Shown here: in pieces, positions 4,740 to 42,130 of the stretch
Numbering within the stretch: position 1 is the stretch's first letter
How the letters are laid out: each line of letters begins with the position of its first letter
IMG/VR virus record: IMGVR_UViG_2917398303_000001
Origin: a virus
Lineage: Duplodnaviria; Heunggongvirae; Uroviricota; Caudoviricetes
Length of the DNA stretch: 42,130 bases
Reading direction: 5' to 3' (one strand)
Translations under genes and position numbers: made by a program
The notes under the pieces: model-generated
Database searches by the model: none
Told to the model about the DNA's origin: nothing
The model's input: the letters and a program-made list of their open reading frames with translations, nothing else

Positions 4740-5410
4740 TGCTCCCCAAATACAAAACCAATTTCAGCCAGTGCCTCGTCCATTTTTTCGATGAATTCCG
4801 GCACCATCTCGTCAAAACTCGCCATGTACTTTTCATCCCGCTCAACCACGACATAATGCAGGCCTTCACGCTTCATACGCGGGTTATAGTTGGCAAAGTA
4901 CCAGGCATCTTTTCGCGTCACCCACATGCTGTACTGCACCTGGGCCATGTAAGCCGACTTTATGGCCTCGAAACCACCGAGCCGGAACTTCATGAAATCC
5001 CGGGAGGTAAACGGGCATTTCAGCTCAAGGCCATTGCCGTCACTGCATAAACCATCGGGAGAGCAGGCGGTGCGCATACTTTCGTCGCGATAGATGATCG
5101 GGGATTCAATAACATTCACGCCGGAAGTGAACTCAAACAGGGTTCTGGCGTCGTTCTCGTACTGTTTTCCCCAGGCCAGTGCTTTAGCGTTAACTTCCAG
5201 AGCCACACCGGTGCAAACCTCGGCAAGCAGGGTGTGGAAGTAGGACATTTTCATGTCAGGCCACTTCTTTCCGGAGCGGGGTTTTGCTATCACGTTGTGA
5301 ACTTCTGAAGCTGTGATGACGCCGAGGCGTAATTTGTGCCACGCATCATCCCCCTGCTCGACAGCTCTCACGTCGATCCCGGTACGCTGCAGGATAATGT
5401 CTGGTGTCAT
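4730..5410 (-). CDS. exo: lambda exonuclease (Red alpha)
   Basis: 226-aa ORF, near-identical over its length to lambda Exo ([40 protein letters not shown]...). Confidence 0.97.
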
Positions 5411-6192
5411 GCTGCCACCTTCTGCTCAGTGGCTTTTTGTTTCAGGAATCCAAGAGCTTTCACTGCTTCGGCCTGTGTCAATTCTGACGATGCACGAATG
5501 TCGCGGCGAAATATCTGGGAACAGAGCGGCAATAAGTCGCCATCCCATGTTTTATCCAGGGCGATCAGCAGAGTGTTAATCTCCTGCATGGTTTCATCGT
5601 TAACCGGAGTGATGTCGCGTTCCGGCTGACGTTCTGCAGTGTATGCGGTATTTTCGACAATGCGCTCGGCTTCATCCTTGTCATAGATACCCGCAAATCC
5701 GAAGGCCAGACGGGCACACTGAATCATGGCTTTATGCCGTAACATCCGTTTGGGATGCGACTGCCACGGCCCCGTGATTTCTCTGCCTTCGCGGGTTTTG
5801 AATGGTTCGCGGCGGCATTCATCCATCCACTCGGTAACGCAGATCGGATGATTACGGTCCTTGCGGTAAATCCGGCATGTACAGAATTCGTTGTCCTGCT
5901 CAAAGTCCATGCCATCAAACTGCTGGTTTTCATTGATGATGCGGGACCAGCCATCAACGCCCACCACCGGAACGATGCCGTTCTGCTTATCAGGAAAGGC
6001 GTAAATTTCTTTCGTCCACGGATTAAGACCGTACTGGTTGGCGACGATCAGCAATGCGATGAACTGCGCATCGCTGGCATCACCTTTAAATGCCGTCTGG
6101 CGAAGAGTGGTGATCAGTTCCTGTGGGTCGACAGAATCCATGCCGACACGTTCAGCCAGCTTCCCTGCCAGCGTTGCGAGTGCAGTACTCAT
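5407..6192 (-). CDS. bet: Red beta single-strand annealing protein
   Basis: 261-aa ORF matching lambda Bet ([72 protein letters not shown]...); overlaps the exo start. Confidence 0.97.
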
Positions 6193-6197
6193 TCGTT

Positions 6198-6494
6198 TTA
6201 TACCTCTGAATCAATATCAACCTGGTGGTGAGCAATGGTTTCAACCAAGTACCGGATGTGTTCTGCCATGCGCTCCTGAAACTCAACATCGTCATCAAAT
6301 GCACGAGAAATGGCTTTTTTGCTGACCCCGTGGCGTTGCAAATGATCGATGCATAGCGATTCAAACAGGTGCTGGGGCAGGCCTTTTTCCATGTCGTCTG
6401 CCAGTTCTGCCTCTTTCTCTTCACGGGCGATCTGCTGGTAGTGACGCGCCCAGCTCTGAGCCTCAAGACGATCCTGAATGTAATAAGCGTTCAT
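6198..6494 (-). CDS. gam: Gam, RecBCD inhibitor (98-aa form)
   Basis: [59 protein letters not shown]... matches lambda Gam. Confidence 0.93.
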
Positions 6495-6569: not shown

Positions 6570-6860
6570 TTAGTGATTCAGGCCGTTACCGCGTCCGTCG
6601 AGAAAAACTTCCACGAGCAAATCACGGGTATAAGTGCGCTCGATGCCGCGATGCAGATAAAGCCGTCCGCGTAAATTAGCTGAGGCAGTCCAGGTACCAT
6701 CTTTGTGTTTGACCAGCATTCCTGGCATGACCGCACCGCGATTAACGGTCTGCGTTCCGTAATGTTGATGAACCATAAAAACTCCTGCCCGTAAGCTGGG
6801 CTGCTGAACATATAGAGACTTCTGCGCGTATTCAGGCGGTGGATGGCCGCCGGTTGTCAT
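6570..6860 (-). CDS. hypothetical early-left protein (96 aa)
   Basis: ATG-initiated ORF with RBS, first gene downstream of the putative leftward early control region; occupies the kil/cIII position of lambda but has no recognisable similarity. Confidence 0.45.
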
Positions 6861-38713: not shown

Positions 38714-38732
38714 ATTTTATAACCCAAATACG

Positions 38733-38758
38733 GGCGCCAGAAATGGCGCCTTTTTTAT
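38733..38758 (+). terminator. intrinsic terminator after J
   Basis: Stem GGCGCC / GGCGCC with loop AGAAAT, followed by TTTTTTATTT. Confidence 0.7.
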
Positions 38759-38771
38759 TTGTGGAGTGAAT

Positions 38772-40834
38772 ATGGCAGTACAGATTTCAGGCGTGCTGAA
38801 AGACGGTGCAGGAAAACCAATACAGAACTGCACTATTCAGCTCAAAGCAAAGCGTAACAGCACCACGGTACTGGTGAACACGGTGGCCTCTGAAAATCCG
38901 GATGAAGCCGGGCGTACAGCATGGATGTTGAGTACGGTCAGTACAGCGTCATTCTGTTGGTGGAGGGATTCCCGCCGTCACATGCCGGGACCATTACCGT
39001 CTATGAAGGTTCCAGGCCAGGTACGCTGAATGATTTTCTCGGTGCCATGACGGAAGATGATGTCATGCCTGAGGCATTGCGCCGTTTTGAGGAAATATTG
39101 GAAGAAACGGCACGAAACGCTGAAGCTGCCTCTCAGAGCGCAGCGGCGGCAAAGAAATCCGAAACTGCAGCGGCATCATCGAAGAACGCGGCGAAAACGT
39201 CAGAGACGAATTCAGCCAACAGCGAGAAAGCTGCTGCATCTTCTAAAACAGCATCAGAAACAGCAGCAACAGCAGCATCACTTTCAGAGGCTAATGCCCG
39301 GGCGTCAGAGGAGAAATCTGCAGAAAATGCTGACGCAGCACGTCGTGAAGCATTATTAGCGACAACTGCAGCTGAAACTGCCACCACAAAAGCGCAGGAG
39401 GCCGCAGCAGACGCAACAAAGGCCGGGCAGAAAAAGGATGAAGCCGTCGCGGCGGCGACACGTTCGGAAGCGGCGGCAGACCGCGCAGAAGCTGCAGCGG
39501 AAGTGACTGTAAAACCATATGTGAATATAGTTCCGCCGCTGCCTGATGTCTGGATTCCGTTTAATGATTCACTGGATATGATTACGGGCTTTTCGCCGTC
39601 ATATAAAAGGATTGTTATTGGCGATGATGAAATAACAATGCCTGGCGACAAGATTGTAAAGTTTAAACGCGCATCAAAAGCAACTTACATTAATAAATCT
39701 GGTGTGCTGACAGAGGCTGCCATTGACGAGCCACGATTTGAATGTGATGGCCTGCTTATTGAGGGGCAAAGAACGAACTTCTTCCCGAACAGTACAGACC
39801 CTTCGAAGTGGAATAAGTCAACTTCACTGGACGTTACAGAAACAGGCACAGATAGTTTCGGTTTTAATTATGGCCGGTTTGTCGTACAGGATTCGATTGT
39901 TGGCACAAGTAAAGCGCATACCATTATAGGGCTGTATTCAAGTACCGGAGGGGTTGATACTTCAGGTGACGAAAAGTATGTAACTATATCCTGTCGGGTA
40001 AAAAGTGAAGTTGATAATATCGCCGTTCGTATTTTATTTGAACATTATGATGGGGAGGTAAGGACATCAATAGGAGCAGCAAGCCTGAACCTTACCACCC
40101 GCATAATTAGCAAGACAGGCCAGACAAGCCGTGTTACAGCAAGGTCTGTTAAGGAAGATGCAACTGGCTGGATATTTTTTGAGGCTACATTAAAAGCAGA
40201 TACAACAGAAAATACGGTTGGTGGTTTCGTCCAGTATTCTCCGGATACAGGGCAGATGGTGGCATCAGGGGATTGTCTCGATGTAACCACTCCACAGATT
40301 GAGGCTGGTACAGGCGCATCATCTTTTATTGTTACGGGGGCGGCACCGGTAACGCGGGCAAGCGATATAGTTACAGTCCCAATTAAGAATAATCTTTATA
40401 ATCTTCCTTTTACGGTTCTTTGTGAGGTACATAAGAACTGGTATAAAACGCCAAATGCAGCACCGCGTGTTTTTGATACCGGCGGTCATCAAACCGGAGC
40501 GGCTATTATTCTTGGCTTCGGTTCTTCAGCAGATTACGACGGATTTCCTTATTGCGATATTGGTGGGTCTAACAGACGGATAAACGAAAATGCATCACTT
40601 GAAAAAATGGTTATGGGGATGCGTGTAAAGTCTGATCAGTCTACATGCGCAGTAAGTAACGGGCGTATATCCAGCGAAACAAAAACCACATGGTCATATA
40701 TTCAGAACTCCGCAATTATCCGTATTGGAGGCCAGACTACAGCCGGTTTACGCCATTTATTTGGTCATGTCAGGAATTTCAGAATATGGCATAAAGAATT
40801 AACTGATGCGCAAATGGGGGAGAGTATTAAATGA
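38772..40834 (+). pseudogene. stf: side tail fibre Stf: lambda-type N-terminal anchor, Ala-rich coiled coil, non-lambda C-terminal domain; apparent frameshift after codon 46
   Basis: ATG at 38772 opens MAVQISGVLKDGAGKPIQNCTIQLKAKRNSTTVLVNTVASENPDEAGR, then the frame is lost; the continuation MDVEYGQYSVIL... is in the -1 frame (ORF 38921..40834). Confidence 0.7.
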
Positions 40835-41112
40835 AAGATTTAACACTCAAATTTTCCGACAGGGCCGACTTTTCGGCCTTTATGGATAGCACTGGCTATT
40901 ATGATGACGAGTCGATGCAGGATGATATTCTCATTGACGTGATAGGTGACGTGTATAAAGAAACCGGAGAACTGACTGACGATGGCGAGCCGGTATGTGT
41001 TAAGGAAGACGGATATTTTGTAAACGTGCGCATCATTAATGATGTGAAAACACCGTCAATATTCGATGAATACGCGGTTGTTGTTGAGCATCAACTTCGT
41101 GGCTGGATGTGA
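40831..41112 (+). CDS. hypothetical acidic protein (93 aa) translationally coupled to stf
   Basis: ATG overlaps the stf stop (ATGA) with a GGGGGAGAG RBS; strongly acidic; occupies the Tfa position but is half the usual Tfa size. Confidence 0.45.
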   Translation: MKDLTLKFSDRADFSAFMDSTGYYDDESMQDDILIDVIGDVYKETGELTDDGEPVCVKEDGYFVNVRIINDVKTPSIFDEYAVVVEHQLRGWM

Positions 41113-41121
41113 GGGAGACAA

Positions 41122-41823
41122 ATGGCTACATCGACAGTAATTCCAGGAGATATCACTACGCTAAAGGGAGATGTCAGTAAAGCTAAGGAAGATATTTCCT
41201 CAATTAGCGGAAAAGTATCAACGCTTCAGACTGATATGGACAGTGCAAAGCAGGATATCAGTACCAGATACACAAAAACTGAAGTGGATAATAAGCTGAA
41301 AAATAAAGTAGAAGTGAATGATCTGGAAAGCGGTCGTTATGGCGGGGATTTTTATCCACTGACAGGTCGTGAAGCGTTTTATTTATGGAATTTGGCTACG
41401 ACTACAGCTGCGGCAAACCTTTATCTTAATCCTGACCCCGCAATTTCGTCTGTATTGCGGTCAACATCGTCTATCCGCTATAAGCATTCAGTAGAGACGA
41501 TAGATTCAGAGCACGCCGATCTCATTCTCAAGATGCGCCCTGTATGGTACAGGTCGCAATGCGAAAATGACAGGCGTGATTGGGGGTTCTATGGATTGAT
41601 TGCCGAGGAAGTAGGAGAAATTGCCCCTCAGTTTGTACACTGGCGACCAGCTAACGAAGATGATGCTCCTGAAGCTATTTCCAGCAATGGCCTTGTTGCC
41701 GAAGGTGTAATGTACGAACGTCTGGTTGTTCCACTGATTCACCATATCCAGAAACTGACTGAAAGAGTTGATGAACTTGAGTCAGAATTAAAGCTGTTAT
41801 CAACTTCCCGAAGCGATATCTGA
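41122..41823 (+). CDS. fibre-like protein with C-terminal intramolecular-chaperone (peptidase S74-like) domain
   Basis: 233-aa ORF with GAGGGAGA RBS; N-terminal coiled coil; C-terminal region (SSIRYKHSVETI ... WGFYGLIAEEVGEIAPQFV ... GLVAEGVMYERLVVPLIHHIQKLTERVDELE) resembles the S74 auto-cleaving chaperone domain of tail fibres and tailspikes. Confidence 0.5.
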   Translation: MATSTVIPGDITTLKGDVSKAKEDISSISGKVSTLQTDMDSAKQDISTRYTKTEVDNKLKNKVEVNDLESGRYGGDFYPLTGREAFYLWNLATTTAAANLYLNPDPAISSVLRSTSSIRYKHSVETIDSEHADLILKMRPVWYRSQCENDRRDWGFYGLIAEEVGEIAPQFVHWRPANEDDAPEAISSNGLVAEGVMYERLVVPLIHHIQKLTERVDELESELKLLSTSRSDI

Positions 41824-41836
41824 TAAAGGAGGAGTA

Positions 41837-42130
41837 ATGGATATAAGCCCCTTACTTCATGCACTTTGTGCTGTGGCTGCGCAGATACTGGTTGGTCTTT
41901 TTACCGGAAACTGGGTTTACGGAGCGATAGCCGGCTGTACGTTCTTCATTGCGCGTGAACACACCCAGGCAGAATATCGCTGGATTGAAATGTTCGGGCA
42001 TGGCAAGCGGATTAACATGCCGTGGTGGGGCGGTTTTGATCCACGCGCGTGGGATGTAGCAAGCCTGATGGATTTTGCTGTGCCGGTGGTGGCGTGTCTG
42101 CTGGTCTGGGTATTTATCCGTTCAACATAA
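41837..42130 (+). CDS. small integral membrane protein (97 aa)
   Basis: Strong RBS AAGGAGGAG; hydrophobic segments at both ends (LLHALCAVAAQILVGLF ; FAVPVVACLLVWVFI); function unknown; its stop is the last base of the window. Confidence 0.45.
   Translation: MDISPLLHALCAVAAQILVGLFTGNWVYGAIAGCTFFIAREHTQAEYRWIEMFGHGKRINMPWWGGFDPRAWDVASLMDFAVPVVACLLVWVFIRST

Follow-up and report, generated by a model that had tools for sequence, protein, structure and literature searches.

A putative two-part side tail fibre and a separate membrane-protein gene behind the side-fibre gene stf of a lambdoid prophage

The virus record IMGVR_UViG_2917398303_000001 of IMG/VR, a stretch of 42,130 nucleotides assigned to the Caudoviricetes and called the window below, ends with the side tail fibre gene stf of a lambdoid prophage, followed by three small open reading frames (ORFs). 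These are situated exactly where an earlier interpretation of the letters alone (the sequence-only reading) had placed them, at 40831-41112 (93 amino acids, aa), 41122-41823 (233 aa) and 41837-42130 (97 aa), and are here named g93, g233 and g97. Each possesses its own start codon and its own Shine-Dalgarno sequence. The final base of the window is the last base of the g97 stop codon, the right end of the prophage lying outside the window. The features of the locus are the following.

38772..40834, + strand: stf, gene of the proximal side tail fibre, frameshifted (DNA alignment with intact stf)
40831..41112, + strand: g93, candidate fibre joint or assembly protein, phrog_1361 (pairs with the Stf C-terminal domain)
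41122..41181, + strand: g233, putative docking peptide, residues 1-20, MATSTVIPGDITTLKGDVSK (motif common to distal partners)
41149..41316, + strand: g233, predicted coiled-coil stalk, residues 10-65 (heptads, helix in the AlphaFold2 model)
41317..41466, + strand: g233, putative small distal tip, residues 66-115, predicted C-terminal end of the mature protein (66% identity to the T1-like homologue)
41467..41823, + strand: g233, Peptidase_S74 intramolecular chaperone domain (IMC), residues 116-233 (PF13884; Ser116 at 41467-41469, Lys121 at 41482-41484)
41826..41832, + strand: Shine-Dalgarno sequence of g97, AAGGAGG (read from the sequence; 4 nt before the ATG)
41837..42130, + strand: g97, predicted small inner-membrane protein, candidate separable cargo gene, phrog_1443 (E 4.9e-57)

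Concerning base composition, the content of guanine and cytosine (GC) amounts to 43.3% in g93, 43.9% in g233 and 52.0% in g97, with 51.5% in the whole window, such that the AT-richness formerly ascribed to all three genes holds for the first two but not for g97. Along the window, GC content, about 0.6 in J, declines to about 0.43 around position 39600, within stf, and stays low until the end of g233. The fall around 39600 is abrupt (from about 0.53-0.6 to about 0.43) and suggests a mosaic junction within the fibre gene. The distal half of stf resembles g93 and g233 in its low GC content, which would fit a single, horizontally exchanged block.

The arrangement is not peculiar to this prophage: a 1.6-kb stretch of the locus is found at a coverage of at least 80% in 718 of the 5426 complete E. 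coli genomes (top identity about 94-95%) and in isolated lambdoid phages, e.g., PhiR49_1 and IdasGreatGrand, and part of the arrangement has been described in the T5-like phage IrisVonRoten (see below). In Tritos, HannyBb and 2G7b, the middle gene is longer than g233. A search of the literature on Tritos, HannyBb, IdasGreatGrand, PhiR49, ECOR13 and lateral tail fiber chaperones found no paper treating these genes.

By DNA alignment with PhiR49_1, Tritos and phage 21, the true start of stf is the ATG at 38772, and one T is missing at 38914/38915, where it belongs to the sequence GGGCGTTACAGC, such that the first 48 codons, which encode part of the anchor domain, and the remaining codons stand in different reading frames. 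ORF 38921-40834, which the sequence-only reading had taken for stf itself, is the out-of-frame remainder of this frameshifted gene. The coupling to g93 proposed at the same time stands, since the ATG of g93 overlaps the stop codon of the remainder ORF as ATGA. The frameshift may either be that of a real pseudogene or a sequencing error; the side-fibre gene of lambda PaPa is a real pseudogene of this kind. Unless the sequence is in error, the proximal fibre would be devoid of its anchor domain, leaving nothing on which the products of g93 and g233 could be mounted. With the frame lost after about codon 48, the fibre apparatus of this prophage is therefore probably not mounted on its virions.

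The Pfam family phage_tail_N (PF08400) matches Stf with an E-value of 1.8e-34 from profile position 51 on, NCBIfam places a head-spike-fibre domain at residues 279-480 of the remainder ORF, and Laminin_G_3 exhibits a weak match at the C-terminus. The C-terminal end, IRIGGQT..G.RHLFGH.RN.RIWHKELTD.Q, is common to seven phages with minor substitutions, and the last 40 or so residues are conserved across all lineages compared (lambdoid, T1-like, Dhillonvirus and T5-like). The lectin-like C-terminal domain as a whole (window 40382-40831) is only 44-46% identical to its counterparts in PhiR49_1 and IdasGreatGrand, whereas in the same two phages g93 is 85-86% and g233 about 95% identical to the products of the window. 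Given these identities, the C-terminal domain of Stf appears to vary like a receptor-binding domain, with only its last 40 or so residues fixed.

The last 150 residues of Stf are found in 199 phage records, and in those that also list g93, the match ends where g93 begins. A tblastn search with g93 itself yielded 179 phage records, in all of which it directly adjoins a gene for a side or lateral tail fibre at that gene's 3' end. Both sets comprise lambdoid phages, T1-like Drexlerviridae, Dhillonvirus, T5-like phages, siphoviruses of about 60 kb (JenP2, Dru_SM1) and rV5-like myoviruses. Several records labelled as Campylobacter or Listeria phages (MG065692, MG065635, OR847733 and others) contain a Stf C-terminus and g93 of the T5-like or rV5-like E. 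coli type with up to about 90% identity; these records are probably mislabelled or contaminant.

The product of g93 is highly acidic, as had been noticed before, with an isoelectric point of 4.05 and 22 Asp or Glu residues against 8 Lys or Arg residues. Its family is small (49 representatives at 50% clustering), is annotated in nearly all records examined as hypothetical (phrog_1361) and exhibits the conserved motifs MKDLTLKF, D-IG--Y, GYxVNxRI and R-W. The protein aligns over its full length with bas32_0023 of IrisVonRoten (92 aa), and the motifs persist in the T5-like members at 35-39% identity. For the family, an AlphaFold2 model based on an alignment of the proteins from the representative search predicts a compact alpha/beta fold (pLDDT, the local confidence score, 84.8; predicted template modelling score, pTM, 0.71), for which structure search found no fold relative. 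Weak matches of g93 to an M20 peptidase (E 0.1), to mREase_IV (E 0.006, 13 bits), to glyceraldehyde-3-phosphate dehydrogenase and the PH0671 cage protein, and to two surface proteins with Ig-like repeats (nine repeats, each weakly resembling one g93 motif) were dismissed as due to chance or composition.

The pairing of g93 with the C-terminal domain of Stf is near one-to-one whether a distal fibre is present or not, and the role of g93 therefore seems tied to this domain. From sequence comparison we infer that g93 acts either as a joint that accepts the next fibre or as an assembly factor for the C-terminal domain of Stf. A narrower alternative, which overlaps with this proposal and differs from it in the choice between joint and chaperone, holds that g93 is purely a folding chaperone of that domain in the manner of Tfa, absent from virions, and that the distal fibre docks directly on Stf. 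The position of g93 in the place of tfa, its translational coupling to stf, the pairing just described and its retention in phage 21, which possesses no distal fibre, are all consistent with such a chaperone. It is countered by the lack of any similarity in sequence or fold between g93 and Tfa/Caudo_TAP or any solved chaperone (Pfam, NCBIfam and fold search) and by the annotation of the IrisVonRoten homologue as a tail fiber protein by the BASEL authors. We consider this alternative a serious one with an appreciable chance of being correct, albeit not the more probable explanation.

The 233-aa protein combines an N-terminal coiled coil with a C-terminal Peptidase_S74 domain, both as formerly suspected. 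A hidden Markov model search against PF13884 gave 29.4 bits (gathering score 22; E 1e-6) for residues 116-172, covering positions 1-57 of the 58 of the profile. Ser116 and Lys121, in the stretch S116-S-I-R-Y-K121, are invariant in an alignment of 30 homologues, and their i/i+5 spacing is what we take to be that of the S74 catalytic dyad, the counterpart being Ser911/Lys916 of endosialidase. Among solved structures, the C-terminal end of DT57C LtfA is closest in sequence (PDB 8hqz chain d, 953-1069; E 8.5e-7 for the whole protein). In the alignment of the 30 homologues, the conserved core reaches from about residue 92 to the C-terminus, residues 92-115 being conserved along with the IMC. Upstream, the heptads run without a break between I11 and I46, hydrophobic residues occupying 11 of 11 a/d positions, the AlphaFold2 model (monomer, pLDDT 60) exhibits a helix at residues 10-60 and a long helix at the end of the S74 domain, and the trimeric coiled coils of Lpp and P22 gp26 give weak matches.

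The S74 domain is not standalone, as the sequence-only reading had described it, but is the C-terminal half (116-233 of 233) of a protein with a fibre part of its own of around 115 residues, which is what a cleavage before Ser116 would leave as the mature protein. A second, short fibre, one of the possibilities named earlier, is the best reading of g233. Full-length homologues have a length of about 220-235 aa, one cluster alone containing 2928 members; proteins of this type are found only in lambdoid and T1-like phages, and the gene is intact in the viable phages PhiR49_1, IdasGreatGrand and PeterMerian. Between g233 and its T1-like homologue, the docking peptide is 75%, the tip 66%, the IMC 69% and the stalk 24% identical.

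Annotations of g233 homologues include putative lateral tail fiber chaperone (PeterMerian, KarlJaspers) and chaperone of endosialidase, and the IMC makes up more than half of the protein, the mature part being tiny and conserved. These points would fit a protein that is no structural fibre but an S74 chaperone acting in trans, helping the upstream Stf to trimerise. The invariant Ser/Lys dyad, however, implies release from the protein's own N-terminal part, and the N-terminus is the same motif that heads fibres with receptor-binding domains of their own (IrisVonRoten Gp24, Tritos gp21). Moreover, Stf of the same type is kept without g233 in phage 21 and mEp460-type phages, and to our knowledge S74 chaperones act in cis on the segment just upstream, which likewise speaks against an action in trans. 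We regard such a trans-acting chaperone as unlikely.

The N-terminal motif, M-[AV]-T-x-T-[VN]-I-P-x-D-I-x-x-L-K, heads g233 as well as the proteins encoded behind the 92-aa gene in five other phages, i.e., PeterMerian gp29 (231 aa), KarlBarth gp30 (98 aa), T5_ev219 (573 aa), IrisVonRoten Gp24 (574 aa) and Tritos gp21 (346 aa). It reads MATSTVIPGDITTLK in the window and MVTKTVIPTDITKLK in IrisVonRoten and T5_ev219, the docking motifs of g233 and IrisVonRoten Gp24 being identical at 11 of 20 residues. Tritos gp21 shares only its first 24 residues with g233 and continues with an unrelated body of around 200 residues and a divergent canonical S74 domain with the dyad stretch S-D-R-D-L-K. Megablast alignments break near codon 20-22, up to which ESCO3 matches and from which PhiR55_1 matches. 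The shared N-terminus, the variable bodies and these breakpoints suggest that g233 is a receptor-binding cassette that can be exchanged, its attachment peptide being conserved. In the Dhillonvirus KarlBarth (4770-5649), the distal fibre is split into ORFs of 98 aa and 196 aa, the first of which has the docking motif; no S74-like C-terminus was found in the sequences examined, and distal partners thus need not carry an IMC.

In a survey of 80 loci on viral contigs with a close g93, restricted to close relatives of the E. coli type, 77 had downstream sequence, and in all 77 an ORF begins 10 nt after the g93 stop with the docking N-terminus or a one-residue variant of it. The middle gene occurs in two dominant alleles of about 234 aa and 346 aa, and g97 comes next in most of the loci. 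These recurring boundaries bear on the suspicion that the three ORFs are debris left by the disruption of a larger tail fibre gene, which arose from the alignment of g233 to the C-terminal end (1147-1384 of 1385) of PHROG profile 3299 and which the frameshift of stf might seem to favour. All three ORFs have their own starts and Shine-Dalgarno sequences, however, and the 77 loci show the same boundaries, as do viable phages from several families. In addition, g233 begins with a conserved protein start, corresponding to that of the separate families phrog_4563 and phrog_19752 (positions 1-32), and g93 and g97 belong to families of full-length proteins. The debris explanation was therefore rejected and appears to us hardly credible.

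As judged from their different phylogenetic distributions, the three genes are not the one module that had been assumed. Phage 21 and mEp460_4F5 possess Stf, g93 and g97 with no fibre gene in between, whereas T1-like and T5-like phages possess Stf, g93 and a distal fibre but no g97, which is not found after the fibre genes in the virulent PeterMerian, T5_ev219 and IrisVonRoten. The presence of g97 is independent of the adjacent structural genes and mainly confined to temperate phages, and its GC content of 52% differs from the 43-44% of its neighbours g93 and g233.

The 97-aa protein exhibits two strongly hydrophobic segments (around residues 3-28 and 72-96), separated by a nearly invariant loop (REHTQAEYRWI..G.GKR.NMPWWGGFD.R.W), and its gene is preceded by the strong ribosome-binding site AAGGAGG, in line with the membrane protein predicted earlier. 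The homologues fall into 576 clusters, all unnamed and devoid of Pfam domains, and belong to the genera Escherichia, Salmonella, Enterobacter, Citrobacter, Leclercia, Aeromonas and Comamonas. The gene is found in 2068 of the 5426 complete E. coli genomes (38%) with up to eight copies, always as a hypothetical protein. No curated family in Pfam, NCBIfam or PADLOC (superinfection exclusion, seroconversion, defence, holin) matched g97, the Pfam hits being sub-threshold only (PhoR, E 0.31), and no lipobox was found. Similarities to PhoR and to antibody and galactosidase chains were dismissed as due to chance or composition.

Full-length homologues of g97 are found in temperate lambdoid and P22-like phages, in prophages and in a phage-plasmid, next to varying genes. 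The gene follows Stf and g93 in phage 21, mEp460_4F5 and a phage-plasmid of 108 kb, overlaps the end of the tailspike gene and adjoins int in the P22-like JEP4, comes immediately after an S74 fibre of 939 aa in a Leclercia prophage of P2-like type and stands after gpJ in a Comamonas prophage. In the P22-like phage vB_EcoP-611R6 (4200-4790), an OafA-type O-acetylase is followed by a truncated remnant of the 3' part of a Tritos-type distal-fibre gene, a GC hairpin, an intact g97 and int; g97 was evidently imported together with a piece of a fibre gene and was alone kept. The only feature noted ahead of g97 is a hairpin with a T run, present in Tritos and 611R6. In Tritos, the hairpin GGGGCCGAGCGCCCC (6670-6684) and the T run are situated between the 346-aa distal-fibre gene and g97, whereas the 234-aa allele of the window has a spacer of 13 nt without hairpin. 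On the chromosome of Aeromonas rivipollensis (6001-6309), a lone homologue of g97 has housekeeping genes for neighbours: a pirin gene stands on one side and a RIO1 kinase gene on the other, genes of lipid A acyltransferases are not far away, and no prophage is recognisable around it.

P22-like phages keep O-antigen conversion genes between tailspike and int. The contexts of g97 between tailspike and int in P22-like phages, the OafA neighbour and the varied host-recognition genes next to it suggest a separable cargo gene of presumably protective function, and a membrane cargo gene, which the sequence-only reading had listed among its options, is the best reading of g97. By analogy, we infer that g97 protects the lysogen or the infected cell, be it by superinfection exclusion or by a change of the envelope.

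A membrane protein always packed tightly behind fibre or tailspike genes, its start overlapping or nearly abutting in JEP4 and Leclercia, may on the other hand be a part of the fibre system (a membrane factor for maturation or release) or a holin-like protein for the timing of lysis. For this speaks that no promoter of its own was detected, so that g97 is probably co-transcribed late, and that one of 20 family members exhibits a weak match to Phage_holin_8 (E 0.042). Virulent phages with the same Stf, g93 and distal fibre genes nevertheless do without g97, which stands beside receptor-binding proteins that are unrelated to one another (Stf, S74 fibres, P22-type tailspikes and gpJ) and has stayed intact where the adjacent fibre gene decayed (611R6). 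Since, furthermore, g97 is far from the lysis cassette and the holin match is limited to that single member, a role in fibre maturation or lysis seems to us quite improbable.

On balance, and with moderate confidence, we favour two functional units at this locus, i.e., a two-part side fibre encoded by g93, g233 and the distal half of stf, and g97 as a separate cargo gene. In Stf, the putative proximal fibre, an N-terminal domain would anchor the protein to the tail, followed by a coiled coil rich in Ala and a C-terminal domain of lectin-like type that ends in about 40 conserved residues. The product of g93, made in step with Stf by virtue of the overlapping stop and start codons, would act on the C-terminus of Stf or stay bound to it. 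The product of g233 would be a short homotrimeric distal fibre, the first 20 residues of which dock onto the end of Stf and g93, with a trimeric coiled coil at residues 10-65 or so and a small tip at residues 66-115; its S74 domain would template the folding of the trimer and then cut itself off before Ser116 by means of Ser116 and Lys121. The distal fibre would be exchangeable, the same docking peptide heading the 346-aa allele of sister prophages and the T-shaped, 574-aa fibre of a T5-like phage. The product of g97 would be an independent inner-membrane protein with two to three spans and an invariant loop rich in Trp and Arg, encoded by the last gene behind the host-recognition genes of temperate phages of sipho-, podo- and myovirus type.

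A wider generalisation is rather doubtful, but may be put forward tentatively: the end of Stf, the 92-93-aa protein and the peptide of 15-20 residues might together constitute a universal plug-in joint, in which g93 serves as a structural adaptor between fibres in lambdoid, T1-like, T5-like, Dhillonvirus, JenP-type (about 60 kb) and possibly rV5-like phages, and g97 might found a widespread family that protects lysogens via a conserved target in the envelope or in DNA entry.

Several points weigh against the favoured arrangement of two units. The binding of g233 to Stf or g93 is presumed from the comparison of sequences, and in the BASEL-2 supplementary table Gp22 and Gp24 of IrisVonRoten were modelled separately, the 92-aa Gp23 being neither modelled nor discussed (PMC11990801). 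The mature part of g233 is very small, with a tip conserved between distant phages, a behaviour not usual for tips that bind receptors; Foldseek with the low-confidence monomer model (pLDDT 60) against the PDB gave no match with an E-value of 0.001 or below and only noise. Concerning g97, scans confined to the promoter consensus, and hence of limited weight, revealed no promoter-like site upstream of the gene in the window, PhiR49_1, phage 21 and Tritos, and its expression in lysogens is therefore conjectural. The topology is ambiguous, since the loop, with 5.3 Lys or Arg residues on average, should be cytoplasmic by the positive-inside rule, and the record of phage 21 cites a TMHMM prediction with both N- and C-terminus inside. 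Finally, partial and weak g97-like matches exist in some large Aeromonas phages, and there is the single orphan copy on a chromosome mentioned above.

If the joint is real, it would offer a portable rule for re-targeting the side fibres of siphoviruses, namely to keep the first 20 or so residues and to exchange the rest. This rule would span phage families used in therapy and engineering, and it would give phrog_1361 a role. The gene g97 (phrog_1443) is among the commoner unnamed genes of E. coli prophages, and a protective or envelope-related role would matter for the prediction of host range. In the present window, the genes are ordinary for this type of prophage, and their fibre is frameshifted.

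Two further parts of the window were inspected. Its left end (1-2622) contains a host ORF of 417 aa, a tRNA-Thr(CGT) gene at 1369-1444 and an integrase gene at 1459-2622 on the minus strand, and the combination of tRNA and integrase fits the thrW attachment site proposed by the sequence-only reading. The interval between J and stf possesses no lom gene, which PhiR49_1 has there, and exhibits the following element:

38732..38751, + strand: terminator-like hairpin between J and stf (8-bp stem with six GC pairs, then a T run)

In phage 21, a terminator is annotated at the equivalent position.

Compared with known systems, the fibre part of the locus is a minimal form of the two-part lateral fibres with IMC already described, and g93 and g97 constitute unstudied small protein families. 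For g97, the most similar arrangement is that of the gtrABC and OafA genes of P22-type phages: it is situated between tailspike and int, once beside an OafA acetylase, and is likewise a small membrane protein found mainly in temperate phages. Other genes that protect lysogens near receptor-binding genes are cor of phi80 and N15, llp of T5 and the gp15 moron of HK97. Differences are that g97 has no sequence similarity to named families, no lipobox and no promoter of its own that was found. For phage Hf4s, a Gtr cluster is documented, and lysogens are protected (10.1101/2021.06.09.447823).

The S74 domain of g233 resembles those of endosialidase, T5 pb1 and DT57C LtfA in its Pfam match, the Ser-x4-Lys dyad, the C-terminal position and the long final helix. 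It differs from the classical S74 proteins by having only about 115 residues upstream of the IMC, compared with about 900-1260, and its cleavage is presumed by likeness.

With the Stf-Tfa system of lambda the locus shares the position after J, the homologous anchor domain of Stf and a small gene coupled to the 3' end of stf. However, none of the three proteins matches the Tfa family (Pfam, NCBIfam), the end of Stf is lectin-like, and a second fibre gene follows.

In DT57C, the fibre LtfB is attached via LtfA, and the small protein LtfC anchors a fibre by accepting beta-strands from the N-terminal peptide of that fibre (PMC10713586, PMC4728585). The proposed arrangement is similar in that one fibre would be attached via another and a small protein would be involved in the anchoring. 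No relation in sequence between LtfC and g93 was detected, however; LtfC acts at the tail tip, and LtfA is anchored by a T5-type N-terminus and not by phage_tail_N.

The organization found in the window is most similar to that of IrisVonRoten. An earlier BASEL paper had noted that small siphoviruses may build their lateral fibres from a single polypeptide or from at least two proteins (PMC8594841). According to the BASEL-2 paper, Gp24 of IrisVonRoten is a distal, T-shaped fibre with a Gp12-like receptor-binding domain (RBD1), a T5-like second one (RBD2) and an IMC, attached to the proximal Gp22, which has a galectin-like C-terminal domain (PMC11990801). The trio bas32_0022 (proximal), bas32_0023 (92 aa) and bas32_0024 (574 aa) exhibits the same gene order and spacing as the window, with a phage_tail_N anchor, a proximal protein whose last 150 residues are 77% identical to Stf of the window, a g93 homologue of 92 aa and a distal protein that bears the docking motif and ends in an S74 IMC. 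Despite this general similarity, the distal protein of the window comprises 233 aa instead of 574, the host genome is that of a temperate lambdoid phage, stf is frameshifted, and the fibre genes are followed by g97.

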